32,000 nucleotides of DNA, from NCBI RefSeq assembly GCF_014696625.1, contig NZ_JACJQL010000033.1, positions 34,777 to 66,776 of the forward strand, given 5' to 3'. Made by a program: the position numbers and the translations under genes. Numbering within the stretch: the first letter of the stretch is position 1; each line of letters starts with the position of its first letter. The notes below the pieces were generated by a model. It saw only the letters and a program-made list of their open reading frames with translations, did not search any database and was not told the origin of the DNA. This document shows, one piece after another, positions 1 through 19,123 of this stretch. The DNA is from Nostoc parmelioides FACHB-3921 (GTDB taxonomy: Bacteria > Cyanobacteriota > Cyanobacteriia > Cyanobacteriales > Nostocaceae).

Positions 1-1190
1 TGGTAAAAATTTTAGTTATTGATGATGATCCGGTTGTGCGGACGGTGCTAAAAAGAACGCTTGAGAATCAGGGCTACGAAACTACTGTCGTCAATAATGG
101 GGAGGAAGGAATTATTCAAGCAAAACTCCTCCGTCCCGCATTGATTATTTGTGATTGGGTGATGTCTGGGTTAGATGGGTTGGAAGTATGTCGTCAAATT
201 AAAGCAAATCCAGAGTTAGCAACTAGTTTTTTTATTTTGTTAACTGCTAAGGGAGCAGCACCAGGAGAGGAGAAAGACAGAGTTAAAGGACTAGATGCTG
301 GAGCTGATGAGTTTATCTCTAAACCAATCGAAATGATTGAATTAAAAGCGCGGGTAAGAGCAGGACTCAGGTTATATCAACTCAATCAGGATTTACAAAC
401 CCAAAAGCAAACTTTAGAAATACTCAACCATGATTTACAAACCCAAAAACAAACTTTAGAAGCAGACTTAGCCGAAGCTGCTGATTATGTGCGATCGCTT
501 TTACCCAAACCCCTGGAAGGAAAAGTAAATACAGAAGCTTTATTTATTCCTTCAACCCAGTTGGGGGGTGATTGCTTCGATTATTACTGGCTGGATGACG
601 AGCATTTGGCAATTTATCTATTGGATGTATCAGGACATGGAATAGGTTCTGCTTTATTATCTGTCTCTATCTTGAATATTCTGCGATCGCAATCTTTACC
701 TAAGACTAATTTCTACAAGCCTAGAGAAGTTTTAAAGGCGTTAAATCATGCTTTCCAGATGGCAAATCACGGTGATAAATACTTCACAATTTGGTATGGA
801 GTTTATCACTGTATTCAACATCGACTTGTCTATGCTAGCGCCGGACATCCCCCGGCTGTAATTCTATCTGGTACACCTGAAACTGGTTTTCAAGTTAAAC
901 GACTCAATTCTCTAGATTTACCTATAGGATTTTTACCTGATGTGCAATTTGAGGATGCTGTCTGGGAAGTGAAAAAAGACAGCACTCTTTATATATTTAG
1001 TGATGGCGCTTATGAAATTAGAGAGCCAGATGGCAACATTTTAGGACTCGATGCTTTTATTGAAATACTAACTAACTCTAGCCAGGCAGAACCATGTAAT
1101 ATTCATTATGTATTAATGCAAATAATGACCTTAAATATTCAACAGATACTTGAAGATGATTTATCATTATTAAAAATTACTTTGACTTAA
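1..1190 (+). CDS. Response-regulator receiver (REC) domain fused to a PP2C/SpoIIE-type Ser phosphatase (RsbU/HsbR-like); 5' end cut by the window edge
   Basis: The frame is open from nt 3 (VKILVIDDDPVV...), so nt 1-2 'tg' are probably the last two bases of the start codon. The listed GTG at 36 is an edge artefact. REC residues are present (DDD, ICDWVMSGLDG acceptor Asp, LLTAKG, ISKP). PP2C motifs are GGDCFDYYWLDD, YLLDVSGHGIGSALL and IFSDGAYE. Confidence 0.9.
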   Translation, partial: VKILVIDDDPVVRTVLKRTLENQGYETTVVNNGEEGIIQAKLLRPALIICDWVMSGLDGLEVCRQIKANPELATSFFILLTAKGAAPGEEKDRVKGLDAGADEFISKPIEMIELKARVRAGLRLYQLNQDLQTQKQTLEILNHDLQTQKQTLEADLAEAADYVRSLLPKPLEGKVNTEALFIPSTQLGGDCFDYYWLDDEHLAIYLLDVSGHGIGSALLSVSILNILRSQSLPKTNFYKPREVLKALNHAFQMANHGDKYFTIWYGVYHCIQHRLVYASAGHPPAVILSGTPETGFQVKRLNSLDLPIGFLPDVQFEDAVWEVKKDSTLYIFSDGAYEIREPDGNILGLDAFIEILTNSSQAEPCNIHYVLMQIMTLNIQQILEDDLSLLKITLT

Positions 1191-1214: not shown

Positions 1215-1553
1215 TTATGAAATAGCTCTTGTAGCAGTCAGTATTTGCCGTTTAAAGTCATCTTGATCGATAAAGGTTTGGAAAATTCTATCCATTTTAG
1301 TTAATTCAAATAACATCTTAACTTGGTCATTCATTGAGCAGATAAAAAGTTGGGAATTAATAGAGCGTAACATTTGCATTGCTGACACTAAAGAGCCTAA
1401 TCCAGAACTATCCATAAAGGTGACCGCATTCATGTCTAGCAAAAAAATATTGTTACCATCAACAATCAATTCGCTAATTTCACGACGTAGTTGATTACCC
1501 CTAATTCCATCTAAAATTCCCGATAATTCAATGATTTGAAAGTTTGTATTCAT
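1215..1553 (-). CDS. STAS-domain anti-sigma-factor antagonist (SpoIIAA/RsbV/HsbA-like)
   Basis: 112 aa with LLDMNAVTFMDSSGLGSLV, carrying the conserved phosphorylatable Ser in DSSGLG. It is convergent with the phosphatase gene, with 24 nt between the stop codons. Confidence 0.9.
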   Translation of the reverse strand: MNTNFQIIELSGILDGIRGNQLRREISELIVDGNNIFLLDMNAVTFMDSSGLGSLVSAMQMLRSINSQLFICSMNDQVKMLFELTKMDRIFQTFIDQDDFKRQILTATRAIS

Positions 1554-1839
1554 AAGCCAGTTTTTTCTGTAAATAAATTGTTAAAGTACCATTACTGTAC
1601 TATTTAATTTTTGAGTTAAATATAGGCATTGAACAGCATACTAATAATTATATTTTCATATGCAATCTCACGGTGTAACAATAATTGCATTGATTTATAC
1701 ATTCTGGCATTATTATATTGAAACGGCAAGGTAGTTAACTATGCAAAAGTAAAATTTAACAAAAATATTAAAATCATAATTATTGAACAAATTTAACTTT
1801 AACTATATATAGGACTCATACTTGATTTTTCAAATACAC

Positions 1840-1939
1840 GTAGGGTGGGCATTCCCCACCATCTCATGGTTTTGGTGGGCATTACAGATACTGAGAATTT
1901 TATGCGCTAGCGCAGGCTACGCCAACAGAAATCAAATCG
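1840..1939. repeat. Dispersed repeat family 1, copy A (GTAGGGTGGGCA..CCCACC palindrome module plus GCAGGCTACGCCAACAGAAATCAAATCG module), inverted relative to copy B at 14466-14562
   Basis: The reverse complement of 1911-1939 (CGATTTGATTTCTGTTGGCGTAGCCTGCG) is identical over 29 nt to 14466-14494. The AAATTCTCAGTATCTGTA and ATGCCCACCAAAACCAT blocks are also shared. Confidence 0.75.
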
Positions 1940-1947
1940 GATTCCTA

Positions 1948-2085
1948 TATGAGGTTGCACATAATATAAAATCCGTTGATTTATCCGCGTTTCTCTGTCT
2001 TGAAAAGTTTCCTACGGAGGGAAACCCTCCTACAGAGCTTTTCGCTGCGTGCATCTGCGTTCAATTATTCTATGCAGCTTCATAT
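1948..2085. mobile_element. MITE-like element with imperfect about 19-nt terminal inverted repeats (ATATGAGGTTGCACATAAT / ATTCTATGCAGCTTCATAT); its interior belongs to repeat family 2 (GAACGCAGA.G.ACGC)
   Basis: The termini are inverted repeats. The interior 2041-2063, reverse-complemented (TGAACGCAGATGCACGCAGCGAA), resembles 25778-25796 (TGAACGCAGAGGGACGCGG). There is no coding capacity; the listed ORF 1822..2088 is built from these repeats. Confidence 0.5.
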
Positions 2086-2129
2086 TAATTAAGATAAACT
2101 CCCGACAATAAAAAAGTTCCCAATCTGTT

Positions 2130-2153
2130 AACAGTCAACAATCAACAGCAATC
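2130..2153. repeat. Degenerate STRR-like heptamer run (AACAGTC AACAATC AACAGCA)
   Basis: Three tandem 7-nt units lie just downstream of the GT2 stop codon on the minus strand. Confidence 0.5.
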
Positions 2154-2176
2154 ATGATGAATTGTGCAACTTAAAA

Positions 2177-4273
2177 CTAGAGTAGCTTACCCATCTTTGA
2201 ATGATCTTTTGGTAGTTGCCAAACGGATGCACGAATGATGCCTGATAAAAGTAGCAAGTTATAGACAGCCCAAGAACTATTGAGTAGGTTAACCCAAGGG
2301 TGATTGAGATGACCAATCACCAATCTATAAAGGCTCCATATTATTCCTATCATAGTCAGAAAAAAGAAGATTAATTGTGGCCAAATCATTTGCAGATAAA
2401 TTCCTGACTGTCGTTGTTTAGGTGTAACTTGAAAGTTAATTTTTTGTCCAGTGAATACACTCCAAACAGCTTGAATAAATATGGGAAATAAAGCGATCGC
2501 ATATTGTTCAGAACGCCAAATTTCACTAGCTGGAATGCCCCATATTGCCACAATAAAGGTTAGACGATTGATGATAAACGTGGGGAAGAAATGTAGAATA
2601 AAATCAATACCGTATGTTTTTACAGGAGCAATTTCTGTAAAAAAATAGATAATTGGGCAAGAAATAAAAATAAGTGTAGCAAAACCAGAAAAATAACTAT
2701 ACATAGTCTTAAAATATTGCAGACGTTGGCAAAACGTGAGTCCTTGTTTCCTGAGTGGGTTTTCTTGAACTAGTACTTGGATTGTTCCTTGCGCCCAACG
2801 TAGTCTTTGTTTCAAAGTAGAACTGAGGTCATCAGGTGCTAAACCTTCTGCCAAAAGTTCATGATGATAAACCGATTTCCAACCAGCACCATGTAGACGC
2901 ATAGCGGTATTCATATCTTCTGTAATACTGTTGCTAGATAAGCCACCGACCAATTGAAATTCATCTAATCGTTTTTCATCTTTGGTAAAATCATCAGCAA
3001 AATATTGTAGTCCCACGTTAATTAAAGCCTCACGTCGCAAAATGGCATTAGTACCTGTATAAAATGCCGCATTCATCCCATCTTTACCCTGTTGTAGCGG
3101 CCCATAAAATAAACTGGCTCGATGCCCAAAGGGGTCGCCTGGGGGAAGATTATAAAAGTCCTGAGGTGTCTGTACAAAAGCAATGCGGTTCTGTTCGTAT
3201 TTGCCATTAAACAGATTGTATGTGTAGAAATATGGCAAAATCCGTTTGAGAAATTGGGGTTTGGGAGTATGATCAGCGTCTAAAGTAAGAATAAATTCTC
3301 CCGAAGTTTCGCCAGAAAAAATTGCGTAATTGAGGTTTCCCGCTTTCGCATGGTGGGGTACACCCACAGGTTTGGGACGAGCAATATAACGCAATCTAGC
3401 AAGTTCGACCAATTCCAGTTCTTTTTGGCGAATGGCGGCTGTTAAAACTTGGCGTTCAGTTTTGAGTCGTTCAGTAACACTATGATGCTTGGGAGATAAC
3501 CAACGAATAAACTGTTGCAAACTCTGCGCTAAAACTTCAGTTGTGGTTTTGTCCTGGCTAGGAACTGATGACGATTTTGACAACCATTCTTCAGCCACTT
3601 GAATATTAGGGGTGAAACTTTCTAGATTTTGCAGACGTTCTACCAAGTGTGAGCGTTCTGCATCAATGCGGTTGGCTTCTTGCTGTAGTAGTGGTGACTG
3701 TAAATCTGCAATACATAACCTTTCCGTCATGGCTCGCATAGTGGGGGAATTACCATCATCCAAAACATAAACATACAACTTAGTTGGCGGATAATCTATG
3801 GCTAAAGCGGCTTGGGCTGTTTGTTCGACTATCTCCGGCGGTTCGTTGTAACAGGTGATAAAGACATCTACAATTGGCCAATCCGTTGGCGGTAGAGATG
3901 GAGTCAACTGGTCAAGTGACTTAATCTGCCGGACTAAAGGTCGCCATAAGCCAATGACAAACATCACTCCGCCAATGTAGCTATAAATTTCTGCCAGCAA
4001 CAACGGAATCGAGAGCCATAACGCATCAAAATTGATGGAGTTGGTAATGCGCCATTGCAAATACCACAGACCAAAAATTAAATTGATTTCTGCGAGGTAA
4101 CGAAATAGCAGTGTTCTTTTTTTGAGGGTGGAACGACTGTTGCCAGAAAAAGTTGGAGAGTCATTAATAGATATAAAAGTCATTTTGACAATGGTAATAA
4201 AATTATCGTCGAAAACAAAACTCCCAATTCCTGCTACATCACTGGGAAGAATCGGACATCCAATAACTGCCAT
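2177..4273 (-). CDS. Membrane-embedded family-2 glycosyltransferase, cellulose-synthase-like (BcsA/CesA catalytic core), no PilZ domain, about 105-aa insertion in the catalytic domain
   Basis: Motifs are VDVFITCYNE, LDDG, HAKAGNLN, LDADH, ITEDMN (TED), QRLRWAQG (QxxRW) and FQVTPK (FxVTxK-like), with TM helices on both sides. The start is uncertain: ATG 4273 overlaps the upstream ORF by 35 nt, and ATG 4183 (MTFISIN...) is the alternative. Confidence 0.9.
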   Translation of the reverse strand: MAVIGCPILPSDVAGIGSFVFDDNFITIVKMTFISINDSPTFSGNSRSTLKKRTLLFRYLAEINLIFGLWYLQWRITNSINFDALWLSIPLLLAEIYSYIGGVMFVIGLWRPLVRQIKSLDQLTPSLPPTDWPIVDVFITCYNEPPEIVEQTAQAALAIDYPPTKLYVYVLDDGNSPTMRAMTERLCIADLQSPLLQQEANRIDAERSHLVERLQNLESFTPNIQVAEEWLSKSSSVPSQDKTTTEVLAQSLQQFIRWLSPKHHSVTERLKTERQVLTAAIRQKELELVELARLRYIARPKPVGVPHHAKAGNLNYAIFSGETSGEFILTLDADHTPKPQFLKRILPYFYTYNLFNGKYEQNRIAFVQTPQDFYNLPPGDPFGHRASLFYGPLQQGKDGMNAAFYTGTNAILRREALINVGLQYFADDFTKDEKRLDEFQLVGGLSSNSITEDMNTAMRLHGAGWKSVYHHELLAEGLAPDDLSSTLKQRLRWAQGTIQVLVQENPLRKQGLTFCQRLQYFKTMYSYFSGFATLIFISCPIIYFFTEIAPVKTYGIDFILHFFPTFIINRLTFIVAIWGIPASEIWRSEQYAIALFPIFIQAVWSVFTGQKINFQVTPKQRQSGIYLQMIWPQLIFFFLTMIGIIWSLYRLVIGHLNHPWVNLLNSSWAVYNLLLLSGIIRASVWQLPKDHSKMGKLL

Positions 4274-7058
4274 AACTATCAGAAATTAATCGGACTCTTG
4301 ATTTAGCAATTCTTGGTAAGCCTCGGCCAGAGTCCCCTTGCGCCACAGCTTGCCACCAAGGTGATTGCATGGCAGTAGATGGACGAATTAAGGGTTGGCG
4401 GTTGGTGACTTTGTACAGTAAGGATTGTAAAATCATACTGTTGGTGCTGCTGGTGAAACCAACGGCTGTTTTACCGGTGGTTTCATAAAAGCCTTCGTAA
4501 AATCCTGCTAGTGGGTTATATAAGTCTGTGGTTCCTGCAAATAACTTTTGACTATATTGATTTTCTGGTAGTAGAGAATGATAGGCAAAAGCTACGGCTG
4601 TACTTACCATTCGCCCTTGGGGTACAGTTTGCCCGTCATCACCTAAAACTTGCCAAGGTTCACCCTTACCAGTAATTGTGCTGTGGACAGTGTAAGGCTT
4701 GCGGTCTATGAGAGTGGTAGCTGAGGCTGTGAGGGTGTCGGTGCGGCGGTAACGCTCTGCTTGTGCTTGAAAAATTGACTCAAAGAGCGATCGCATTTGT
4801 GGATCTAAGCCAAATTCTAGGGCGTAAAGTAAGAAAGGATTACTAACTGTATATTGGTTAACCTTGGAGTTAGTATCTGTGCGGCGGCGTTGGGTAGGAA
4901 CCTTTACCCCTTCCACCAAGGTAGTTTGATATTCACCACCAACAGCCGAACCCTCTACCTCAAATCCCCATAGTTGAAAACCACGAGCAGCGTATTCTTC
5001 ATAACCCAAGCGGGTTTCTAGATTGACGCGGGTAAGATATCTTCCTTCCTTACCTGGGGTAACTGTGGCGCTGGAAAGAACTTTATCCCGCACCACCCGC
5101 AAGTATGACCAATCTAAAACAATTTGATCAACTGCTTGAGTATATTCTGGGTGACAGCTTTTTAAGTTATACAGTGCTGCTAATAACCTACCTATATCTA
5201 AAGCTGACCAACCGTTACCCTGGGGAACCGGATTCCCACCATAATCAATCGGTTGGAGAACTCGCGTATCATAACCTCGATTCGGTAATTCTCCGGCAAA
5301 TAAGGGTAGCTGGCCTAAGGCTGCTAATAAATGCCGGGTACGCTGGTCAAATTCCTTCGGGGAAATAATCTCCAGCGATCGCACCACATGAAGCGCCGCT
5401 AGATAATCTCCCAATCCCCAAAGAGTAGCGCCCTGAAAATCGCTGCGATCGTCGATTAACCCACTACGAGCATGATAATTGGCTTGAAAGTACCTCCATG
5501 CTGCTTCTGCATAGCGCCGTTCCACTACCGTTAGAGGTCGAGCGAGTTTCAAGGTAGAAGATGGGTCTGGATTACCCACTGGGGGAATGGGTGCGATCGT
5601 CACTTCCCCAACCTGAGGAGTATTTCCTGATATTGGAGGGCTAGAATTTGTTGGGGTTGTAGATGTTTGCGCCACCTTGGGAGTTTCTCCTGGTGGGGGA
5701 GTCGCAGCAGAGGAAGTATTGTTGTTTGCTGGTTTGCTTGGTTGACTAACAGCACTCGAACCAATTAAAGGACGATTTCCTCTGGCTTTGTAGTATAAAA
5801 TCTCCAAAATTAGCCCATTGGTATTGCCAGTTAAAGCTTTATTCGGCTGCTTTGATTCCTCATAAATACCAGCGTAAAAACCACCGCCATCGGGACTGCG
5901 GAGATCCTTGACCGCATCGAAAATCTTTTGTGCATAAGCATTATTTGGGAAAAGATAGCGCCAACCAAAAGCCGCTTTGCTACTAACACTACGAAACTGG
6001 GGGTAAGGTTGATTTGTATCGGTGATAGTTGCCCAATTTTTACCGTTGGCATAAACGGTGTTGTAGAGAAAATAAGGTTCTTGGTCAATGTTGTCTTCCG
6101 TCACCGCAGTTAACTGACCTGTCGCATCGTAGCGCCGCTTCTGTACCTCCAAAACCCTAGCAGCAAAATCGCCTAACTCTCCCTGAAAACCAAATTCGAT
6201 GCCTTCCAGGATATAAGACTCACTCACGACATAATTATTCGCATTGGTGCTTTGGAAATCGCGGGTATCAACGGGAATCTGTACACCATTAATTTCCACC
6301 ATCTTATATGGTTCTAAAGCCAGAGCTTTGGGCGCGGCAAAACCCCAAAGTTGATAACCCCTAACTGCATATTCTTCATAGCCGAGTCGTCCCTCTTGTA
6401 CCAGTAATGTGGTGTTATCTGGGAGGACTGTTGCGCCAAAAAGTTGTTCATCTTTGAGCGATCGCCCTACTTGCCACTTAGCTACAATCCCTTTGAGCCA
6501 ATCATTATATTGAGGGTGACAAGTGCGAATTACATCAAAGGCCGCCAATATCCGACCGACATCTAAGGCAGACCAGCCAATACCCCGTTCAATGGGAGTA
6601 TTAGTGTAATCTACCATCTGTCCAGTAGCTGCGTTGTAGACTTTATTCGGCAAAGCATCCTCAAACAACTTCAGATTTCCCAGACCCGTCAAAAACTTAT
6701 TCAGGCGAGCGTCAAAGTCTGCTTGATCAGTGAGATTCAACCACCGCGCCGCATTCAACGCCATTAAGTAGTTCCCCATATCCCACAGCGTACCGGAAGG
6801 ATAACCCCCTGTAGAATTAGTAAATCCTGTTGCTGGCTGATAGTTTTTCACAAAATATTGCCAAGCCGCACGAGCATAAGTTTGTTCCTCAGGGCTGAGA
6901 GGAGATGTAATACTGCTACAACTGGCGGAATTAGCAGCAAAATTAGAACTCTGTGCTAAGGTGCGTACTGGAACATAGAACAAAAACTGCAACAATGTCC
7001 CAACTAGGAACAATGCCATCCATTTCCACAGCTTTTGTTGGCGTTGCTTGTATAGCAT
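4239..7058 (-). CDS. Exported or membrane-anchored protein with two tandem DUF3131-like domains joined by a Pro/Ser/Thr-rich linker
   Basis: 939 aa with an N-terminal hydrophobic segment (WMALFLVGTLLQFLFYVPV). Domains at about aa 55-432 and 503-900 share TLWD/TLWG..YL.AL, ELPN, GWSALD[VI]GR and RLGYEEYA.RG.QLWGF. The linker at aa 433-502 (nt 5553-5762) is PSKPANNNTSSAATPPPGETP... The family name is a recollection. Confidence 0.8.
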   Translation of the reverse strand: MLYKQRQQKLWKWMALFLVGTLLQFLFYVPVRTLAQSSNFAANSASCSSITSPLSPEEQTYARAAWQYFVKNYQPATGFTNSTGGYPSGTLWDMGNYLMALNAARWLNLTDQADFDARLNKFLTGLGNLKLFEDALPNKVYNAATGQMVDYTNTPIERGIGWSALDVGRILAAFDVIRTCHPQYNDWLKGIVAKWQVGRSLKDEQLFGATVLPDNTTLLVQEGRLGYEEYAVRGYQLWGFAAPKALALEPYKMVEINGVQIPVDTRDFQSTNANNYVVSESYILEGIEFGFQGELGDFAARVLEVQKRRYDATGQLTAVTEDNIDQEPYFLYNTVYANGKNWATITDTNQPYPQFRSVSSKAAFGWRYLFPNNAYAQKIFDAVKDLRSPDGGGFYAGIYEESKQPNKALTGNTNGLILEILYYKARGNRPLIGSSAVSQPSKPANNNTSSAATPPPGETPKVAQTSTTPTNSSPPISGNTPQVGEVTIAPIPPVGNPDPSSTLKLARPLTVVERRYAEAAWRYFQANYHARSGLIDDRSDFQGATLWGLGDYLAALHVVRSLEIISPKEFDQRTRHLLAALGQLPLFAGELPNRGYDTRVLQPIDYGGNPVPQGNGWSALDIGRLLAALYNLKSCHPEYTQAVDQIVLDWSYLRVVRDKVLSSATVTPGKEGRYLTRVNLETRLGYEEYAARGFQLWGFEVEGSAVGGEYQTTLVEGVKVPTQRRRTDTNSKVNQYTVSNPFLLYALEFGLDPQMRSLFESIFQAQAERYRRTDTLTASATTLIDRKPYTVHSTITGKGEPWQVLGDDGQTVPQGRMVSTAVAFAYHSLLPENQYSQKLFAGTTDLYNPLAGFYEGFYETTGKTAVGFTSSTNSMILQSLLYKVTNRQPLIRPSTAMQSPWWQAVAQGDSGRGLPRIAKSRVRLISDSYGSYWMSDSSQ

Positions 7059-7299
7059 ATACGGAGAGTTAAAAATCAGTACATTGATAGCACTGCGGTA
7101 GAAATGAATTGAATCGCATTAGCGAATCACATGAAATTGCGGACTCATGACTTTAGATGTTAGGCGGAAATTTTTGCTATATCAGCGAGGAATACACTGA
7201 ATCTCTTGTACTTAGGTACAAAATACAAGTTAATATACTGATATATTCTGGGTATAATGCTTTATTTACTTTTAGTTCACAGTAATCTTGACTTTGAAA

Positions 7300-8784
7300 C
7301 TATTGCTCAGGTGCGATCGCTCCAACACCTCCGCTTTCAAGCTTAACTCCTGCCCAAACAATGAGGGGTTTACCCACTTGCTTATAGAGAAAACTTTCTA
7401 AAATTACGCCATTATTATTAGCTGTGAGCGCTTTATTTGGCTGACGTAAAGATTCATACAATCCGTTGTACCAGCCTTTATCAGATTTCAGTTGCTTGAA
7501 AACAGTGTTAGATAAAGCGCTTGTGTAATCAGTGTTGTAAAGCATATGCCAGCCGATCGCCGCTTTGGCACTGAGAAAACGTAAATTATTGTACTGTTGT
7601 CCGGTGTCTGTAATCGTTGCCCAAGGTTTACCGTTCACAAACAAGCTGTTGTAAACAAAGTAAGGCAGACGGTCTACATTGTCTTCTGTCAAAGCGGTTA
7701 ACTCTTGTGTTGCTTGATAACGGGCTACTTGAGCGGCTAAAACTCTATCAGCATAAACTTTAGGCAAAGCCTGAAACCCAGTTTCTATGCCATCCAGAAT
7801 ATAGGGTTCGCTGAGAACATAGTTATTTGCGCCTGAGTTGTTAGCATCGCGGCGATCATAAGGAACACCTTGCCCGTAGAGATTGACAAAGGCGGTTTGC
7901 GAACGATAATCTAAGGCTTGCTTGACATCTAACCCCCATAGTTGCAAACCGCAGGCGGCGTAATTCTCATAGCCTAAGCGCCCTTCTTGGTGATATTGTT
8001 CTTGACCTTGAACAACGCTAGTGCCGTACATTTGCCCGTTTCTGGTGAGGCGCTTGACTTGCCAATGCTTCCAAACAGCTTGCACAGGCGATCGCATTTG
8101 GGGATACTTGGCTTCGACAATTTTTAGCCAGATAGCCATTCGTCCTAAATCAATTGCTGACCAGCCAATTTCTTCTCGTTGCTCTAATTTTCCATAATTA
8201 ACAGGAAGGAGAGTTTTGGCATTGTAGACTTTGTTGGGCAGTTCACCTTTATATAAAGGTAGGGTTGCTAAAGTCTGCAACATTTTACTCATCTTTGCCT
8301 CAAATTCTGCCACTGGAATGAGATTTAGTTCTCTAGCACTCACCAAAGCAGCGATCGCCGCCGCCTGATCCCACATAGTGACAGAACTAAAGCCATCGGC
8401 GGAATTAACTAAGCCGGTTTCATCGTTCCAGTTGTGTTGAAAATATGACCAAGCTATCCGAGCGTTAGCCATATCTACCGCATCCAGTTTGCCAAGTTTC
8501 ACCCCGATGTAAGGTGTTTTAGTTTTGGTTAATTCACTAGTAGGAACCTCTGTTCCTGGTAGAACTACAGATTTAGCATCAAGTTTTGCTACCTTTTGTG
8601 ATTGTGTTTCCACATTAGCGGTAGGAGAAGTTTGAGGTGTTGATATTGCAGATATTGACGTATTTTGAGCCAGACGACTAGACAAAGAATTTAACCCAGC
8701 GATCGCTATCACTGCGGTAACCACCCCTCCAACAGCAGCTAGTATAGACAAGCCTGGAGGTGGGGGTTGAAAGTCGGAACTCAT
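7300..8784 (-). CDS. Membrane-anchored single-domain DUF3131-like protein (paralog of both domains of the 939-aa protein)
   Basis: 494 aa with an N-terminal TM (LSILAAVGGVVTAVIAIAGL). Shared blocks are TMWDQAAAIAAL, ELPNKVYN, GWSAIDLGR, GRLGYENYAACGLQLWGL, LSEPYILDGIETGF, TEDNVD, NGKPWATITDT and QPNKALT. Confidence 0.8.
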   Translation of the reverse strand: MSSDFQPPPPGLSILAAVGGVVTAVIAIAGLNSLSSRLAQNTSISAISTPQTSPTANVETQSQKVAKLDAKSVVLPGTEVPTSELTKTKTPYIGVKLGKLDAVDMANARIAWSYFQHNWNDETGLVNSADGFSSVTMWDQAAAIAALVSARELNLIPVAEFEAKMSKMLQTLATLPLYKGELPNKVYNAKTLLPVNYGKLEQREEIGWSAIDLGRMAIWLKIVEAKYPQMRSPVQAVWKHWQVKRLTRNGQMYGTSVVQGQEQYHQEGRLGYENYAACGLQLWGLDVKQALDYRSQTAFVNLYGQGVPYDRRDANNSGANNYVLSEPYILDGIETGFQALPKVYADRVLAAQVARYQATQELTALTEDNVDRLPYFVYNSLFVNGKPWATITDTGQQYNNLRFLSAKAAIGWHMLYNTDYTSALSNTVFKQLKSDKGWYNGLYESLRQPNKALTANNNGVILESFLYKQVGKPLIVWAGVKLESGGVGAIAPEQ

Positions 8785-8863
8785 GCTGTATCAAGCCTTA
8801 TTGTGTAATTTACTCAAAGCTTTAACAACGTTATCTTTCCCAATTCGCAAATTTAACTAACAT

Positions 8864-10159
8864 TTAAAATCTCATCCTTAACTGTCCCGTCAAAGAACCT
8901 CCACTGTAATCACTTCCGCCTGTATCTTGATTTCGCACATTACTAAAGCCATAGCCAATATCAGCCTCTATTTTTGGCGATAACTTGACTGTACAACGAC
9001 TTTGATAAGTGTTGGCGTTATCAGTTTCTCCATTAATTCGCTGTTGTCCCACATTGGCTGACAGCCGACACTGCAAGAAATTAGCAATATCGCCCTGCCA
9101 AGCAACTTCAGCGTTGTATGCGAGAAAATCTGGAGGAGAAAAATAGCCGCTAGTGCTTTCCAGATTGCGACTGTAACTCCAATTGAATAAGTTAGCCGCC
9201 AAAGAAAATTGTCCAAACTTGCGTTCTAGCCTGCTAAAAGACTGAATTTCAAAATTGCGATCGCTATAGTTACCCAAACGCAGCGATGAGAATAAACTAG
9301 TGTCACGATCAATTTGCCAATATAAATTAGGCCCAAACCGCCAAGCTGTAATTTGATTTTCTAAGGTTTGAACATTAGATTTATAAGGGCCTTGTTCTAA
9401 GTTAGCTGATATGATTAAACCCGATACTAATTGACCTGAAGAAGAAATTTGTGGTGGTATAATAGGAGCTTCCATCTGAGCATTGAAATTGATAGCTGTC
9501 GGTAATCGATTAAAGACATCAACTCCTACTGTTGTTTGTAGAGTTATTTCATCTACTTTTCCTTGCCATCCAATTTTCACGGGAATGTTAGTAACCGATT
9601 CCACATCCCGTTGTTCAAACAATTCTAAACCTGTTTTGAGAAATATTTTATTGCCGTTAGGCAATTTAAACTGAATTGTTGGTTCAACGAGTAAGTTACT
9701 TTGACCAAAGTTATTAGTATCATTCACGAAGTCTGTTTGAATACTTTCTAATACTGTCACTGGCTTAACCGATTCGGTGGGATTTGCAGGTGGAATCGGG
9801 TTAGGCTGTATTGTGGGTGGTATTGGTATAGCTGGAGGTAATCGTAATCCAGGATTGAAGTTTTCCGGGGCAGCAATTAAGATATGTTTTTTATCTAATT
9901 GATTTAAAAGTATATTGGGGTGGCGTTGATTATTCTGGATAGAGAATAAATCAACATTTTTATTATTAAAAGTGATATTTTCTAGCGATTTCGAGAATTT
10001 ATCCCAATTACTGTGTATTGGAGCAGCTTGTGAATTTGCTGTTAATAATCCCCAAATACCGAAACTCCAGAATAAAATAAGCTGAATTTTTAGTCCTTGC
10101 GAAAAGGGTTTAGCATACTTGTATCGATATACAAAGTTATAATAGGCTCTAATTTTCAT
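8864..10159 (-). CDS. Secreted outer-membrane beta-barrel candidate (possible exit porin of the glycan cluster)
   Basis: 431 aa with a signal peptide ending ..LLTANSQA/AP and a Pro-rich linker (LPPAIPIPPTIQPNPIPPANP). The C-terminal two thirds show an alternating hydrophobic pattern rich in G/S/N/Q/Y, ending in the terminal aromatic signature ..GQLRMRF. Confidence 0.65.
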   Translation of the reverse strand: MKIRAYYNFVYRYKYAKPFSQGLKIQLILFWSFGIWGLLTANSQAAPIHSNWDKFSKSLENITFNNKNVDLFSIQNNQRHPNILLNQLDKKHILIAAPENFNPGLRLPPAIPIPPTIQPNPIPPANPTESVKPVTVLESIQTDFVNDTNNFGQSNLLVEPTIQFKLPNGNKIFLKTGLELFEQRDVESVTNIPVKIGWQGKVDEITLQTTVGVDVFNRLPTAINFNAQMEAPIIPPQISSSGQLVSGLIISANLEQGPYKSNVQTLENQITAWRFGPNLYWQIDRDTSLFSSLRLGNYSDRNFEIQSFSRLERKFGQFSLAANLFNWSYSRNLESTSGYFSPPDFLAYNAEVAWQGDIANFLQCRLSANVGQQRINGETDNANTYQSRCTVKLSPKIEADIGYGFSNVRNQDTGGSDYSGGSLTGQLRMRF

Positions 10160-10845
10160 AATGAAATATCATACTTTGTAGTATTAGCAACAATCTCAGA
10201 ATTATTTTTCTGCTGTTGCTCACTTTAACTTAATCGACACTATAGAAATTTCTTTCAATGTTTGGAAAAATTAAATAAATTTTAACTTCGTTTTCATACC
10301 AATTAAAAATTTAAAAATCCATACTTTACAAGGGTTTCTAGTTTCATAACCACCGTAAAATCGGAGATTAAGTATGATTTTCGTTTAGCACATACTACAC
10401 AAAAATTCATCCAGTCAGATATACATATTTAAATTTTTGCAAGCATTACCCTAAATAATATAGTTTTAATTCCGAACAAAAATTATTTTTTAGATAGAAT
10501 ATATATATACAAAAATGCCCCAACAAGTTGAATATAATTTTGGACGGCTCGTTCATATTTATCAAATAAAAATTAGAATTCAGGAGCCTGAAATCAGCAA
10601 AAATTATGTGCAAATTACGGATGCAGCTAGCTTCTCCTCATCCTTAACCAAAACAAGAGGATTTAAGCGCACACTAACTAAGTTCGATTGCTGAAATTTA
10701 TTTACCCTGATAGTTATCGCAGGCTGCTGAATCATATTTAAAGCGTTATCATTTTGGTTTTTTAAATAGGTCAATTCTTTAGTTACCCATTCTCTTTTGA
10801 TAAATACAGACCTAGTTAATCTATTGAAATCACCCAACATCAAAC

Positions 10846-11637
10846 ATGAACAAAACACATAAGCAGACTGCTCTAATTACTGGTGCAGCTAGTGGTATTG
10901 GTTATGAATTAGTGTGTATTTTCGCTGAAAATGATTACAATCTCGTATTAGTAGATCGAGCAAAGGAAAAACTAGAAGAAATAGCGATTGAGTTTCAAGA
11001 TAAATTCGGAATTTCTGTTAAGCCTATTGTCCGAGATTTATCTAAAACAACATCTCCTGAAGAAATTTTCCAAGAGGTAGAACAGGCAAATATTAAAGTT
11101 GATGTGCTAGTTAATAATGCTGGGTTTGGTACCTATGGATTATTTAATGACACTAACCTGACTGATGAACTAGAAATGCTACAGGTAAATTTGGTATGTA
11201 CTACCCATTTAACTAAGTTATTTCTCAAAAATATGGTTCAGCAAGGTGAGGGCAAAATCTTAAATGTCTCTTCTGCTGCGGCTTTTCAACCAGGGCCTTT
11301 GATGGCCGTTTATTTTGCGACTAAAGCCTACGTATTATCTTTTTCTGAAGCACTCGCCAATGAATTAGACGGTACAGGTGTCACTGTGACAGTTCTTTGT
11401 CCCGGAACGACACAGTCTGCTTTCCATCAGAGAACGGGGATGGCAGATTCTAAGCTAGTTAAAGGTAAAAGGATGATGGATGCAGCAACTGTAGCCGATA
11501 TTGGTTATCGTGGTTTGATGCAGGGCAAAACAATTGTTATTCCTGGTTTGATCAATAAAATAATGGCGAAAAGTATCAGATTTATCCCCAGGAAACTAGT
11601 AACTAAAATTGTCAGGAATATGCAGGAAAATAAATAA
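10846..11637 (+). CDS. Short-chain dehydrogenase/reductase (SDR) family oxidoreductase
   Basis: TALITGAASGIGYEL (TGxxxGxG), NNAG, the catalytic SSAA...YFATK (YxxxK) and PGTT. Confidence 0.9.
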   Translation: MNKTHKQTALITGAASGIGYELVCIFAENDYNLVLVDRAKEKLEEIAIEFQDKFGISVKPIVRDLSKTTSPEEIFQEVEQANIKVDVLVNNAGFGTYGLFNDTNLTDELEMLQVNLVCTTHLTKLFLKNMVQQGEGKILNVSSAAAFQPGPLMAVYFATKAYVLSFSEALANELDGTGVTVTVLCPGTTQSAFHQRTGMADSKLVKGKRMMDAATVADIGYRGLMQGKTIVIPGLINKIMAKSIRFIPRKLVTKIVRNMQENK

Positions 11638-12583: not shown

Positions 12584-13750
12584 CTACTGCAAAAGCCCAA
12601 TCATATGCAGTAGGCCTTGACCCGTCACTAACTCGATGATTAGAGCAATAAAACCTAACATCGCAATCCGTCCATTCCATACTTCCGCACTAGTAGTCAT
12701 ACCCCATTCCCAACTTTCGGGAGGGTACATTTTTACCCGCTTTTTCATTTGGGCTGCTTGCGACAGCTTGAAGCTGGGTTTGTTGAGCGCATCAATTACT
12801 AAATTCGCCAAAGCTCTAATAAATACTGGATGGGTATTAGGTGCAGGGACGCGACGGAAATTGTGGATTCCGGCTTCTTCTGCTATTTCCCGATACTCAA
12901 TATCAATTTCTTGTAGTGTCTCAATGTGTTCGGAGACGAAACTGATAGGTACAACAACTAAATCTTTGACACCTTGCGCGCCTAGTTCTTTGAGTGCATC
13001 TTCAGTATAGGGTTGCAGCCATTCAACTGGGCCGACGCGACTTTGGTAGGCTAAAGTGTGAGGATTTGGTCGATTGAGGGTTTGCATAATTAATGCAGTA
13101 CATTCCTCAATCTCTTGCTGATAGGGGTCGCCTGCTTCTTCAACATAGCTTTTAGGTACACCATGAGCGCTGAAGAACACATGAACTTGATCAGGATCAG
13201 AAAATTGGTCTACTTCTTGGCGGATGAGTTCCGCCATCGCCTGTAAATAACCTGGTTCTTTATACCAAGAGGGAATGACGGTGTATTCCAGACGTTGTAG
13301 TTTGGGGTCTTCTTGCCAAAGTCTTTCTAGTAGACGGAAGCTAGAGCCACTAGTGCTGATGGAGAATTGGGGGTATAGTGGCAAAATCACCAAGTTATCA
13401 AGGTTATCTTGGGTCAAAAGAGCGATCGCTTCTTCCGTATATGGGTGCCAATAACGCATTCCCACATAAATATTCGCTTCTTGACCCAAATAATGCAACT
13501 GTTCCTTTAAAGCTTCTCCTTGGGCTTCCGTAATTCGCCGTAGTGGGGAGCCACCGCCAATTTGTTTATAGTTCTCTTGGGAGGTTTTAGTGCGTCGAGA
13601 AGCAATAAACCAAGCCAAGGGCTTCTGCAACCACCGGAATGGTAAGCGTATAATTTCCGGATCGGAGAATAGGTTAAACAAAAAAGGCCCTACATCCTCC
13701 AGCTTATCGGGACCACCGAGATTGAGTAATAATACGCCTACACGACCCAT
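12584..13750 (-). CDS. hemH: Ferrochelatase with a C-terminal CAB/HLIP-type chlorophyll-binding helix
   Basis: [34 protein letters not shown]..., FSAHGVP and VSEHIETL. The C-terminal helix is [26 protein letters not shown]. Confidence 0.95.
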
Positions 13751-13843: not shown

Positions 13844-14473
13844 ATGGCAACAATTTTCAGGGATTTAAGTTATCGCTATCAATGGCTGTACGATTCCATA
13901 TCTCGCGTAGCTGCGCTGACTGTAGGTGGAGAAGCCAGATTTCGGGAATTAGCTTTGCAAGGATTAACCATTGAGGCAAATACTTCTGTGTTAGATGTTT
14001 GTTGTGGTAGTGGTCAAGCAACGCAATTATTAGTGAAATATTCACAAAACGTAACAGGATTAGATGCTTCTCCCTTATCTTTGCGACGGGCTAGACAAAA
14101 TGTCCCAGAGGCTAATTATGTAGAAGCTTTTGCGGAGAAAATGCCATTTCCAGATAACCAGTTTGATGTAGTGCATACCAGTGCGGCTTTACATGAAATG
14201 GAACCGCAACAATTGCGAGAAATTATTCAAGAAATTTATCGCGTGCTGAAACCGGGAGGAGTGTTTACATTAGTAGATTTTCACACTCCTACTAATCCCA
14301 TCTTCTGGCCTGGTTTAACAGTATTTTTACTGTTATTTGAGACAGAAACAGCTTGGCAGTTATTAAAAACAGATTTAGCTGGTTTACTCACTGAAATTGG
14401 TTTTGAAGTAGGTAAAACCACTTTATATGCGGGTGGCAGTTTACAGGTGATTCAAGCTAAGAAATCGATTTGA
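13844..14473 (+). CDS. Class I SAM-dependent methyltransferase (Methyltransf_11/UbiE-like)
   Basis: Motif I VLDVCCGSGQ, then GLDASP and LKPGGVFTLVDF. It is divergent from hemH (93-nt gap). Confidence 0.85.
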   Translation: MATIFRDLSYRYQWLYDSISRVAALTVGGEARFRELALQGLTIEANTSVLDVCCGSGQATQLLVKYSQNVTGLDASPLSLRRARQNVPEANYVEAFAEKMPFPDNQFDVVHTSAALHEMEPQQLREIIQEIYRVLKPGGVFTLVDFHTPTNPIFWPGLTVFLLLFETETAWQLLKTDLAGLLTEIGFEVGKTTLYAGGSLQVIQAKKSI

Positions 14474-14562
14474 TTTCTGTTGGCGTAGCCTGCGGTTGTG
14501 CAGAAAATTCTCAGTATCTGTAGGGTGGGCAATGCCCACCAAAACCATTAGTTGATGGGCAT
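14466..14562. repeat. Dispersed repeat family 1, copy B; overlaps the last codons and stop codon of the methyltransferase
   Basis: CGATTTGATTTCTGTTGGCGTAGCCTGCG ... AAATTCTCAGTATCTGTAGGGTGGGCAATGCCCACCAAAACCAT. It contains the near-perfect palindrome GGTGGGCA-A-TGCCCACC. Confidence 0.75.
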
Positions 14563-14704
14563 AGAGAATAGACATTATCACCACAATTGCTGTTTATACC
14601 AATTCTCTATGAAGTTGCGCCAAATAAATGATGTAGAGACGTTGTATGCAACTTCTCTAAAGTACTACTAAATTTGTGTGTACACCGTAGCTCTTTGGAC
14701 AAGA

Positions 14705-16105
14705 TTAAATTAAACCCATGACTGTGCGGTAATGAAGCTCGAATTGTTCCACTGTTTGAGATTGGCGATTAGTAGCCCATTCACTGAGGTGGAATAATTC
14801 TGCTCGCAATTTCTCAACGTCAATTGTACTTACTTGACCATTGTTGATGATTTGCTGACCATTTACCCAAGCACTATCAACAACATTTGTAGGACGACCT
14901 AAAACTAATAAACCAATGGGATCTGTACGCGGAACTAATGATAAGTTAGTGAGATCATACAGTATTAAATCGGCTTTTTTGCCAACGGTAATTGAACCGA
15001 GTTGATCCGCCAGATTTAGTCCCTTGGCCGCGCCTAAAGATGCCATTTCTACTGCTTGTCTGGGAGAAATCCAAGAGCGATAATCAAAGTCGGTGACGTT
15101 ATGTAAAATAGACCCGATTTTAATAGCTTCTAATAAATCCTGTGAGTCGTTACTAGAAGCACCATCACAACCAAAAGTAACATTTACCCCGGCTTGGCGA
15201 TATTTTAAAATTGGGGCAATTCCACTACCTAAACGTAAATTACTTAAAGGATTGTGGACGACTGTCGATTGGGTTTGTGCGAGGATATCGATATCAGCAT
15301 CATTTAACCACACACAATGAGCTAAAGAAGTGCGATCGCCTAAATAACCAATGCGTTGCAGATGGGTAACAGCACTACAACCGTATTTCTCTTGGGCGAG
15401 TTTTTCTTGGGCTTTGGTTTCTAATAAGTGAGAGTGACGACAAAGATGATAGCGATCGCTTAATTCAATACAACCTGTGAATAAAGCATCAGTACACAAC
15501 TGTATCCCCGTAGGAGCGACTAAAATACTCACACCTGCATCTGGACGATGAAACTGTCTCACAGCCTCTTCTACCAATTCTAAGGTGGCAGTAGTTGAAC
15601 GGAAAAAAGGCTCATGGGTTTGGGTCGATTCCCCCGCAGGTAGCCCGGCGGAGAGGGATTGGTCTTGAATTAGGGGGGCGATAAAAGCCCGAATCCCGAC
15701 TTCTTGATAAGCGCGGACTGCACTGGCGATAGTTTCTAACTCCTGACCAGGAATTAATACCAGATGATCTACTACACTGGTTCCCCCAGACAGTAAAGTT
15801 TCTACCGCCGTACCCAAGGCGCTGAGATAGACCTTCTCCGTATCCAAAGGCGCAAAATCATACAATTCCGCCAGCCATAACTCTAAAGGAAAAATAGAGA
15901 TTAAGCCTCTTTGCCACATTTCTGATGAGTGGGTATGAGCATTGACAAAACCAGGTAGTAACAGTTTATGTTTACCGTCAATGGCAGTACCGACAACATC
16001 TAAATTCGGGGCAATAGCGGCGATTTTATCACCCACAACCTGAACATCGGCAGTGGTGTAACCGTCATCAGTAGCTAGTAGAACATTTTGGATAGTGAAA
16101 CTCAC
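14705..16105 (-). CDS. Metal-dependent amidohydrolase / aminohydrolase (ATZ/TRZ, guanine/cytosine-deaminase-like subfamily)
   Basis: HxH motif FVNAHTHSSEM, then HLLET, VHNPLSNLRLGSG and the terminal Asp motif FGCDGASSND. Confidence 0.85.
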   Translation of the reverse strand: MSFTIQNVLLATDDGYTTADVQVVGDKIAAIAPNLDVVGTAIDGKHKLLLPGFVNAHTHSSEMWQRGLISIFPLELWLAELYDFAPLDTEKVYLSALGTAVETLLSGGTSVVDHLVLIPGQELETIASAVRAYQEVGIRAFIAPLIQDQSLSAGLPAGESTQTHEPFFRSTTATLELVEEAVRQFHRPDAGVSILVAPTGIQLCTDALFTGCIELSDRYHLCRHSHLLETKAQEKLAQEKYGCSAVTHLQRIGYLGDRTSLAHCVWLNDADIDILAQTQSTVVHNPLSNLRLGSGIAPILKYRQAGVNVTFGCDGASSNDSQDLLEAIKIGSILHNVTDFDYRSWISPRQAVEMASLGAAKGLNLADQLGSITVGKKADLILYDLTNLSLVPRTDPIGLLVLGRPTNVVDSAWVNGQQIINNGQVSTIDVEKLRAELFHLSEWATNRQSQTVEQFELHYRTVMGLI

Positions 16106-16188
16106 AGATTTTAACCTTAATTAAGTAATTAAACGCTCAATATGATTTCAAGGTACAAAATAGTAATTATGTTGGGTGATGCAATTTT

Positions 16189-16983
16189 ATGGATCAGTCT
16201 TTACGCACATTGGGAGTAGCGCCAAATGCTTGGATGGTGAATCAAGCGATCGCAGATATCACTCGTCCGCAAAAGACTCCACAACCCGTTATCTTATCAA
16301 CAGAAACCAAAACTCTGCGTCTAGACTTGGCAAAAACAGCCATTATTGTCATAGATATGCAGAACGACTTCTGTCACCCAGATGGCTGGTTAGCCCATAT
16401 CGGCGTAGACGTGACACCAGCTACTAAACCCATCGTACCTTTAAATAATTTACTGCCAGAATTGCGTGCTGTTGGTGTGCCTGTAATTTGGTTAAATTGG
16501 GGCAATCGTCCCGACTTACTGAACATTAGCGCCAATTTACTTCATGTTTACAATCCTACAGGGGAGGGGGTGGGGTTAGGCGATCGCTTACCCAAAAACG
16601 ATGCTAGAGTACTGATGGCAGGTAGTTGGGCGGCAGCAGTCGTAGACGAACTCCAGCAATCACCACAAGATATTTGTGTGGATAAGTACCGCATGAGTGG
16701 CTTTTGGGACACACCTTTAGATAGTATTTTAAAAAACCTGGGAATTACAACAATATTGTTTGCTGGTGTTAACGCTGATCAATGTGTACTGACTACCCTA
16801 TGTGATGCTAACTTCTTAGGATACGACTGCATTTTAGTCAAAGATTGTACTGCTACAACTTCCCCTGATTATTGTTGGTTAGCGACCTTATATAACGTTA
16901 AACAATGCTTTGGTTTTGTTAGTGATTCACAAGCAATTTTCACAGCCCTAAATCACCCTGAAGCCACAGGAAGGGATAAATAA
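16189..16983 (+). CDS. Isochorismatase-family cysteine hydrolase (RutB/biuret-hydrolase/nicotinamidase-like)
   Basis: TAIIVIDMQNDFCHPDGW and the nucleophile Cys in GVNADQCVLTT. The stop TAA is directly followed by the ATG of the next gene. Confidence 0.85.
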   Translation: MDQSLRTLGVAPNAWMVNQAIADITRPQKTPQPVILSTETKTLRLDLAKTAIIVIDMQNDFCHPDGWLAHIGVDVTPATKPIVPLNNLLPELRAVGVPVIWLNWGNRPDLLNISANLLHVYNPTGEGVGLGDRLPKNDARVLMAGSWAAAVVDELQQSPQDICVDKYRMSGFWDTPLDSILKNLGITTILFAGVNADQCVLTTLCDANFLGYDCILVKDCTATTSPDYCWLATLYNVKQCFGFVSDSQAIFTALNHPEATGRDK

Positions 16984-19081: not shown

Positions 19082-19100
19082 TTTGCACAATCTATCGTGA

Positions 19101-19123
19101 GGGCTGTTGACTGTTAACAGCCC
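19101..19123 (+). terminator. Hairpin downstream of the P450 gene
   Basis: GGGCTGTT(GA) ... (TT)AACAGCCC followed by TTATT, 20 nt after the stop codon. Confidence 0.5.

Follow-up and report, generated by a model that had tools for sequence, protein, structure and literature searches.

A PilZ-less cellulose synthase-type glycosyltransferase of Nostoc parmelioides encoded beside DUF3131 proteins, a candidate outer-membrane barrel and partner-switching genes

How does a cellulose synthase-like enzyme without a PilZ domain export its polymer, and what controls it, when the genes around it encode none of the partners of the characterised systems? The question is raised by a gene cluster in a 32,000-nucleotide (nt) stretch of DNA from Nostoc parmelioides FACHB-3921 (assembly GCF_014696625.1, contig NZ_JACJQL010000033.1, forward strand positions 34,777-66,776), referred to here as the window. 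Four open reading frames (ORFs) on the minus strand encode a 431-amino-acid (aa) candidate outer-membrane barrel protein (8864..10159), a 494-aa protein with one DUF3131 domain (7300..8784), a 939-aa protein with two (4239..7058) and a 698-aa family 2 glycosyltransferase (GT2; 2177..4273). A first-pass annotation made from the sequence had placed all four ORFs at these coordinates and given the 79-nt and 241-nt gaps between them correctly, and what it saw in these genes was confirmed apart from details; it missed the adjacent genes for a STAS protein and a response-regulator/PP2C phosphatase. We favour, with moderate confidence, the reading that the region encodes a synthase-dependent β-glucan system, probably for cellulose or a cellulose-like polymer, in which DUF3131 proteins would process the glucan in the periplasm, the barrel would provide an exit and a partner switch would exert control.

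The GT2 carries the full motif set of a processive synthase, as had been claimed, with every quoted motif located: VDVFITCYNE at residues 135-144, VLDDG at 170-174, HAKAGNLN at 308-315, LDADH at 331-335, ITEDMN at 450-455, QRLRWAQG at 489-496 and FQVTPK at 614-619, the last of which aligns with the BcsA gating loop FNVTAK. In Pfam, the protein matches the plant-type model PF03552 (Cellulose_synt) at 1e-37 together with general GT2 models. Among NCBIfam models it is nearest to the cellulose synthase catalytic subunit, scoring 330.5 bits with TIGR03030 (CelA; cut-off 699) and 240.7 bits with PRK11498 (cut-off 992). The lack of a PilZ domain and the presence of an insertion would lead one to expect scores under these equivalog cut-offs. 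The OpgH model matches only weakly (E 7e-5), and the closest solved relatives are the BcsA proteins of Escherichia coli and Rhodobacter, followed by plant CesA. Hydropathy agrees with the transmembrane (TM) helices that had been proposed to flank the catalytic domain, giving segments on both sides of it at residues 89-109, 528-549, 559-580 and 627-653, and the alignment to the BcsA TM region covers residues 441-685.

The absence of a PilZ domain also holds. The alignment with E. coli BcsA reaches residue 685, the last aligned TM residue; only 13 of the 698 residues remain, and no PilZ domain follows. Pfam returned no PilZ match in the GT2, and its orthologues likewise end without the domain. 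All 43 cyanobacterial GT2s compared end 4-19 residues past the column that holds window residue 685, in the last TM helix, and all 43 keep TED, QxxRW and FxVTxK. At the other end, most homologues span only 95% of the ORF and conservation begins near residue 36, so the true start is probably Met31 (nt 4183), which would abolish a 35-nt overlap with the upstream gene. Judged by its sequence, the GT2 has everything expected of a BcsA/CesA-type processive synthase, gating loop included, but lacks PilZ.

PilZ-less cyanobacterial CesA proteins are usually cited as the ancestors of plant cellulose synthases. The window GT2 is one of these long-known enzymes, the cyanobacterial "CesA with PCR domain", and is not new, because the cluster appears, from published gene descriptions and gene order, to be the orthologue of Anabaena PCC 7120 alr3754-alr3757. 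The class includes alr3757, Npun_F1469 and SYNPCC7002_A2118, and a 2025 review calls the partners, mechanism and regulation of the PilZ-less cyanobacterial CesA unresolved (PMC12430437). At the protein level, the window shares ~95% identity with Trichormus variabilis ATCC 29413 and further Nostocaceae, and a near-identical contig, L001, has the same gene order as the window cluster. The best described relative is that of Synechococcus 7002, a 788-aa protein that is 54% identical to the 693-aa PCC 7120 protein and larger by an insertion of ~90 aa (PMC4851311). It is needed for growth at low salinity and for a cellulase-sensitive layer, labelled by a carbohydrate-binding module (CBM), that lies between peptidoglycan and outer membrane and in the glycocalyx (PMC4851311). 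Because the motif set is canonical and this relative is needed for a cellulase-sensitive, CBM-labelled layer, cellulose would be the most likely product.

Periplasmic processing is the role that we propose for the two middle proteins. Their family, as suggested in the first-pass annotation, proved to be PF11329 (DUF3131), which matches the 494-aa protein once (E 1e-156, 521.7 bits, cut-off 20.3) and the 939-aa protein twice (envelopes at residues 8-438 and 488-897, 1070.6 bits), covering profile positions 2-367 of 367. The 494-aa protein consists of an anchor at residues 11-29, a linker of ~60 aa and the first domain, and the 939-aa tandem protein of a signal peptide, domain 2 in its N-terminal half (nt 5745-7037, minus strand), a Pro/Ser/Thr-rich linker and domain 3 in its C-terminal half (nt 4368-5597, minus strand). 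The three domains share 31-44% identity, and the sequence blocks described as common to them are visible in the alignment, with the exception that domain 2 has ALPNK and not ELPN[KR]. The hydrophobic N-terminus attributed to each ORF is seen in hydropathy as an anchor in the 494-aa protein and a signal-like segment in the 939-aa protein, so both proteins would be periplasmic. Nearly all single-domain members of the family likewise open with a hydrophobic anchor or signal, and the domain is therefore expected to be extracytoplasmic.

An AlphaFold2 model of the first DUF3131 domain (pLDDT 82.6, pTM 0.89) has the α/α toroid that had been anticipated for the repeated domain. It is predicted to be an (α/α)6 barrel with the carbohydrate-active fold of the β-1,2-glucanase/transglycosylase SGL clan. 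In a Foldseek search of the PDB, the top 20 matches were all SGL-clan enzymes or uncharacterised GH144-like "putative glucoamylases" (GH, glycoside hydrolase family), at E 1e-10 to 4e-6, TM-scores of 0.6-0.68 and 10-13% identity. They include EeSGL1 (8xuj), a Chitinophaga GH144 enzyme (5gzk), a fungal GH162 enzyme (6imu), XcSGL (8xul) and the GH189 cyclisation domain of cyclic β-1,2-glucan synthases (8wy1 and 8rf0). A single-sequence PDB search with the DUF3131 protein found nothing and only profiles reached GH189: the family profile matches 8wy1 at E 2.4e-7, Agrobacterium Cgs at 3e-4 and 4gl3 at 0.12, a similarity limited to the first ~100 residues. A GH8 enzyme like BcsZ was considered as the closest fold and rejected, with BcsZ at rank 45 and a TM-score of 0.46 in Foldseek. 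The SGL clan comprises GH144, GH162, GH189 and GH192-194 and is defined by residues E239, F286 and Y367 of XcSGL, in a paper that mentions neither cyanobacteria nor DUF3131 (PMC12102758). DUF3131 resembles the clan in its predicted fold and in the profile match to GH189; it differs in its low identity to clan members and in its genomic partner, which is a BcsA-like GT2 and not a GT84 cyclic glucan synthase. Invariant residues of DUF3131 itself include E240, E350 and Y93. Mentions of DUF3131 in the literature that we found are few and include no functional account; in Shewanella, DUF3131 genes sit in a salt-shock co-expression module (PMC8371737).

An exhaustive search resolved the DUF3131 family into 974 clusters at 50% identity, with some proteins carrying three or four tandem domains and one fused to GH26. 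Its invariant residues, numbered on the translation of window nt 7303-8502, are W18, Y93, D118, R121, E173, E179, D216, E232, E240, E273, D274 and E350. Domains 1 and 2 of the window keep them all; domain 3 carries Q216, N232, T273 and T274. The C-terminal domain of 36 orthologous two-domain proteins shows the same pattern (D216Q in 58%, E232N in 94%, E273T in 100% and D274T in 94%), and the other domain classes retain D216, E232, E273 and D274. Domain 3 is therefore probably non-catalytic, and the cluster would supply two potentially catalytic DUF3131 domains and one that only binds.

A domain class so clearly stripped of conserved acidic residues could also belong to proteins that are not enzymes at all, but stand in for BcsB and the TPR domain as a scaffold that activates the synthase through the anchor TM helix and passes the chain to the barrel. 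Pfam scans of the window ORFs scanned found no BcsB, BcsZ, TPR, HlyD or TolC partner in the cluster, bearing out the absence of these partners noted in the first-pass annotation, and BcsB or HlyD/TolC partners were rejected as candidates on this ground. The membrane anchor of one DUF3131 protein would suit a scaffold too, and the presence of three or four domains per locus, with fused chains of up to four, suggests a conduit. However, the other domain classes keep D118, E173, E179, D216, E232, E240, E273, D274 and E350 as well as aromatic residues across phyla, in the manner of an active site, one family member is the GH26 fusion, and the close structural relatives are all enzymes. A purely structural role for DUF3131 is in our judgement unlikely, and we retain periplasmic processing of the glucan as the preferred account.

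The proposed exit is the 431-aa protein, in which the signal-like N-terminus, the Pro-rich linker (residues ~100-135) and the C-terminal ...GQLRMRF described earlier were all seen. Pfam BCSC_C scores 23.8 bits on it, against a cut-off of 23.5, and covers only residues 317-390. The AlphaFold2 model has 16 strands between residues 136 and 430, within the 16 to 18 predicted; its pLDDT is 60.8 overall and ~70-88 in the barrel, and the first 135 residues are Pro-rich, disordered and modelled with low confidence. The top Foldseek match is PgaA (4y25, E 3e-5), followed by BcsC (9b8a/6tzk) and PelB (9h80), among generic barrels. There are 583 homologues, some of them named "BcsC-related outer membrane protein". 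Pfam found no TPR match in the protein, and a profile of 32 homologues found neither a BcsC chain nor any other sequence-level match in the PDB. These observations are consistent with a TPR-less 16-strand barrel of the PgaA/BcsC/PelB type, which would fit the exit pore of a synthase-dependent system. The protein appears to be the orthologue of alr3754, described as a BcsC-domain β-barrel that is induced ~10-fold by nitrogen step-down or starvation (PMC4365693).

Conservation of the cluster was assessed with a DUF3131 profile scan of one genome per species, which gave 581 confirmed matches; the best 79 loci were kept, and their six-frame ORFs were searched with profiles or sequences of each window protein. 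Window-type loci numbered 56 in cyanobacteria (Nostocales, Chamaesiphon, Pseudanabaena, Acaryochloris, Thermosynechococcus, Pleurocapsales and Phormidesmis), and 18 loci were non-cyanobacterial, mostly proteobacterial (Vibrio, Shewanella, Noviherbaspirillum, Thiothrix, Leucothrix and one deltaproteobacterium). The GT2 gene adjoins DUF3131 genes in 41 of the 56 cyanobacterial loci, and in ~12 of the other 15 the contig breaks off right after the DUF3131 genes. The barrel was found in 38 of the 56, and most of these loci encode three or four DUF3131 domains. Outside cyanobacteria, a homologous PilZ-less GT2 lies directly upstream of one to four DUF3131 genes in 17 of the 18 loci, and no barrel was detected in any of the 18. 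The GT2-DUF3131 module also occurs on a Salmonella IncFIB plasmid (L085, CP053577), and tblastn found DUF3131 matches on plasmids of Pantoea stewartii, Paracoccus and Nostoc, in some cases with a gene annotated as a glycosyltransferase next to them. The cluster genes are thus conserved together in related genomes.

In the non-cyanobacterial GT2s (16 of 16), SED and QRFKY replace TED and QxxRW; these enzymes make up a sister subfamily, the product of which may have a different linkage. Their neighbours are also distinctive. The Vibrio operon runs in the order response-regulator PP2C, STAS, sugar nucleotidyltransferase, HATPase_c_2, GT2, three DUF3131 genes, a gene for an unknown protein and GH16; in Vibrio tetraodonis (L070, 13959-17168) the additional genes are those for a sugar-1-phosphate nucleotidyltransferase, a GH16 glucanase, a second GT2 and an unknown 324-aa protein. 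On the Salmonella plasmid, opgC, a response-regulator phosphatase, STAS and an "ATP-binding protein" are divergent from GT2 and three DUF3131 genes; opgC belongs to the succinyltransferase family of osmoregulated periplasmic glucans (OPGs). The genes additional to the module on this plasmid are opgC and those for a globin, a large response regulator and GH2. For Klebsiella, a block of GT2, three DUF3131 and anti-sigma/antagonist genes, also with opgC, has been listed in passing (PMC12974863).

A second type of cyanobacterial DUF3131 locus was seen in eight cases (L057, L058, L060, L064, L065, L068, L071 and L076). It encodes a single-domain paralogue, ~48% identical, with a paralogue of the barrel a few kilobases away in seven of the eight. 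A GT2 gene is present within the locus only in L057, which overlaps the main cluster of L050. In Nostoc linckia (L060, 8646-11137), the single-domain paralogue directly follows an OpgC-family acyltransferase gene.

Several of these observations favour another polymer, namely a β-1,2-, β-1,3- or mixed-linkage β-glucan that is largely periplasmic, OPG-like and osmoprotective, which DUF3131 would size or transglycosylate, with the barrel as a side exit restricted to cyanobacteria. Among characterised folds, those nearest to DUF3131 are β-1,2-glucanases and the β-1,2-glucanotransferase domain of cyclic glucan synthase; opgC is found in the Salmonella and Klebsiella (PMC12974863) modules and directly before the DUF3131 paralogue of Nostoc linckia; a GH16 gene follows the DUF3131 genes in Vibrio; and the GT2s with SED and QRFKY have no detected barrel beside them. 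In addition, in Synechococcus 7002 the cesA mutant is impaired when salinity is low and the polymer lies in a periplasmic layer (PMC4851311), and the Shewanella DUF3131 genes are co-expressed as a module under salt shock (PMC8371737). However, the cyanobacterial GT2s all keep the canonical cellulose-synthase motifs and have BcsA and CesA as their best characterised matches, the polymer of Synechococcus 7002 is sensitive to cellulase and is bound by a cellulose-binding domain (PMC4851311), and cyanobacterial loci encode a predicted exit barrel of the BcsC/PgaA type. For the window we therefore think an OPG-like product rather unlikely and keep cellulose, or a cellulose-like glucan, as the favoured one.

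The genes that accompany the GT2 most consistently are those for STAS and PP2C proteins, which say most about the likely control of a synthase that lacks PilZ. In the window, a 112-aa STAS protein of the RsbV/SpoIIAA type (PF01740 at 9e-20) is encoded 620 nt downstream of the GT2 gene on the same strand (1215..1553, minus). Convergent with it is a gene (~1..1190 or 36-1190, plus strand) for an RsbU/SpoIIE-like phosphatase with Response_reg and SpoIIE domains, the first codons of which are probably cut off by the window edge. Contig L001 continues further: a 396-aa response-regulator/PP2C gene precedes genes for a 138-aa HATPase_c_2 (RsbW-like) protein and a large CHASE3-PAS-GAF sensor kinase, within a partner-switching region at 18712-20831. 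In Hapalosiphon and Symplocastrum, too, the cluster is followed by this set. A STAS gene is adjacent in 36 of the 41 cyanobacterial and 15 of the 17 non-cyanobacterial GT2-DUF3131 loci. The window STAS protein carries the phospho-serine motif ...FMDSSGLGS..., and DSSGLG is shared by at least 80% of 58 STAS proteins linked to the cluster. An RsbW-like kinase is encoded in 30 cyanobacterial loci, and in others the domain is inserted in the GT2.

This insertion was found in nine cyanobacterial loci (L005 at 14466-16865, L020, L027, L029, L034, L042, L047, L050 and L051), where the GT2 is ~800 aa long and an RsbW-like HATPase_c_2 domain of ~135 aa lies inside the cytosolic insertion between DDG and HAKAGN. 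In BLASTP, the stand-alone RsbW protein of L001 matches residues 217-347 of the L005 GT2 with 48% identity (E 5e-37). The corresponding "PCR-like" region of the window GT2 spans residues ~175-305 (3359..3751, minus strand); aligned with the GT2s of L005, L027 and L050, it keeps the flanking helices and shows a clean gap after residue 249 (nt ~3527). In the Nostocales, including the window lineage, the kinase is not inserted and is encoded by a separate neighbouring gene. The pattern of fusion and fission speaks for direct action of the kinase-like protein on the synthase. No similarity of the insertion region to the plant P-CR (E up to 10) or to any PDB chain was detected, so homology to the P-CR was rejected and the "PCR" label is positional only; reviewers place the P-CR and PilZ in overlapping space in the fold (PMC8892547), and assign this insertion, too, to the part of BcsA taken up by PilZ. 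From its published length and identity, we infer that the insertion in the Synechococcus 7002 CesA is an RsbW-like insert.

Partner-switching genes are abundant in cyanobacteria, with five RsbW-like kinases in PCC 7120 (PMC13555669), and those beside the GT2 gene might be an ordinary sigma-factor switch that is a mere neighbour, with the GT2 unregulated or under transcriptional control only. Transcriptional inputs have indeed been reported, in the form of the nitrogen step-down response of alr3754 (PMC4365693), a HetR-bound region between alr3757 and alr3758 (PMC4192349), and binding of a FUR-family protein to the promoter of alr3756-alr3757, a predicted operon for an "unknown protein" and cellulose synthase (PMC12267927). 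However, the linkage spans cyanobacteria, alpha-, beta-, gamma- and deltaproteobacteria and plasmids, the kinase-like domain is physically within the GT2 in nine loci, and a sigma factor gene was not seen among the neighbours of the module in the loci that were annotated or scanned with Pfam (L001, L003, L005, L070 and L085). A chance neighbourhood of this kind seems to us very improbable, and we take the output of the partner switch to be the GT2. One of the five PCC 7120 kinases, Alr3760 (PMC13555669), is, by gene numbering and strand labels, the RsbW-like kinase beside alr3757.

In the mechanism that we propose, the GT2 would polymerise UDP-glucose and thread the chain across the inner membrane. 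In the periplasm, the anchored DUF3131 protein and domain 2 would cut, release or transglycosylate the nascent glucan, in a role like that of BcsZ or OpgG, and the degenerate domain 3 would only bind the chain. Through the barrel, some of the polymer would reach the sheath or glycocalyx. The activity of the GT2 would be set by the partner-switching module and not by cyclic di-GMP (c-di-GMP): the sensor kinase would control the response-regulator PP2C, the PP2C would dephosphorylate the STAS protein, and the STAS protein would engage the RsbW-like kinase domain docked on the cytosolic insertion of the GT2 or, in many cyanobacteria, inserted in that loop. The adjacent phosphorylation switch thus probably replaces c-di-GMP control. 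More tentatively, GT2, DUF3131 and STAS/PP2C/RsbW might constitute one ancient, cross-phylum and sometimes plasmid-borne module, in which the RsbW-like domain gates the synthase directly, DUF3131 is a new SGL-clan family of glycoside hydrolases or transglycosylases and the product in many hosts is an osmoregulated periplasmic glucan instead of secreted cellulose.

A number of observations weigh against the proposed cellulose system. The closest characterised structural relatives of DUF3131 act on β-1,2-glucans, not cellulose, with BcsZ only 45th. The barrel model is of moderate quality overall, its tie to BcsC consists of the borderline Pfam score and TM-scores of 0.36-0.54, and the profile of its family finds no BcsC sequence in the PDB. 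Gloeocapsa (L004) and two further loci have barrel and DUF3131 genes but no GT2 gene adjacent to them. The window does not contain the RsbW-like gene, which in L001 lies just beyond the matching edge, and SYNPCC7002_A2118 was put in the RsbW-inserted class from its length only.

Compared with characterised systems, the cluster shares with proteobacterial Bcs a processive GT2 with D, D, D, TED, QxxRW and FxVTxK motifs and a TM channel, predicted periplasmic (α/α)6 protein(s), a predicted 16-strand BcsC/PgaA-type barrel and the logic of synthase-dependent secretion. Unlike Bcs, it has no PilZ domain, no BcsB and no TPR on the barrel; its periplasmic domains are three DUF3131 domains, probably of the SGL clan, and not GH8; and its proposed control module is a partner switch instead of c-di-GMP. 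The window GT2 conforms to the cyanobacterial CesA "with PCR domain" in being PilZ-less and 95% identical to the Nostocaceae protein, with an insertion between DDG and HAKAGN. However, the literature treats that enzyme alone (PMC12430437), whereas conserved partners are described here, and the "PCR" insertion, which has no P-CR similarity, is the site of RsbW-like insertion in other lineages. The PilZ-type XcsA-XcsB-TolC model of Thermosynechococcus likewise involves a cyanobacterial BcsA homologue without BcsB and BcsC, but its HlyD/TolC-type partners are absent from the window cluster.

The closest precedent for the switch is Anabaena HenR, the STAS-glycosyltransferase All4160 and the kinase Alr3423, a partner-switching-like module that acts on an enzyme (PMC13555669). 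There too a SpoIIE-type phosphatase, a STAS domain and an RsbW-like kinase are present, acting directly on a polysaccharide enzyme. In that module, however, the STAS domain is fused to a Bac_transf-type sugar transferase of heterocyst polysaccharide, whereas here the kinase-like domain is fused into, or encoded beside, a BcsA-type synthase; Alr3760 showed no interaction with All4160 (PMC13555669). The OpgH-OpgG/D-OpgC system also pairs a membrane GT2 with periplasmic glucan-processing proteins, and shares with the module the presence of opgC in enterobacterial and Nostoc loci and the low-osmolarity phenotype of the Synechococcus 7002 mutant. OpgG and OpgD are GH186 β-sandwich proteins and not (α/α)6 barrels, so this likeness is one of analogy only.

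The remaining features of the window concern the setting of the cluster. Counts in a promoter and terminator scan of window positions 1500-10900 equalled the shuffled expectation, so operon structure cannot be inferred from it. An Rfam scan of the whole window matched no family, indicating no c-di-GMP or other riboswitch there, and a search of the two larger intergenic regions found only short, chance-level repeats. The 241-nt spacer between the single-domain and tandem DUF3131 genes measures 1.5-4 kb in several Nostoc genomes (L006, L008 and L010), which suggests inserted elements or extra genes there. Many Nostocales have a fourth DUF3131 gene just upstream of the GT2 gene; the window does not. 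Farther out, the flanking genes are housekeeping genes unrelated to the cluster, including those for a psbA-type photosystem II reaction-centre protein, ferrochelatase, an Obg GTPase, a pentapeptide-repeat protein and a DeoC/LacD-family aldolase (among them 22523-23650 and 12584-13750, both minus strand), and none of them appears tied to the glucan cluster. A cytochrome P450 gene (17660-19081, plus strand) lies between cupin and LmeA-like genes and appears to be a strain-specific insertion or deletion, because the matching gap in L001 (1866-2386) is only ~520 nt.

The first-pass annotation had called the system undescribed. That does not hold for the GT2, for the synthase-dependent secretion logic, for the BcsC likeness of the barrel, flagged previously (PMC4365693), or for the gene block as listed once for Klebsiella (PMC12974863); it does hold for the function of the neighbouring genes. 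As far as the literature that we found shows, what is new is the assignment of DUF3131, by its predicted structure, to the SGL-clan fold; the systematic coupling of DUF3131 to a PilZ-less BcsA-type synthase across phyla; a third DUF3131 domain that appears degenerate; and the apparent coupling of the synthase to a partner switch, including insertion of a kinase-like domain in the "PCR" loop. The PilZ-less cyanobacterial CesA thereby gains a testable parts list, made up of three putative periplasmic SGL-clan domains, a candidate TPR-less exit barrel and a phosphorylation switch, with a bearing on the engineering of cyanobacteria for cellulose production. If the proposed mechanism is true, it would give the DUF3131 family a function, reinterpret the cyanobacterial "PCR domain" and account for an accessory block of Klebsiella that is also found on Salmonella plasmids, with DUF3131 matches on Pantoea plasmids. 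It would also add a second regulatory principle for synthase-dependent polysaccharide secretion, beside c-di-GMP and PilZ.

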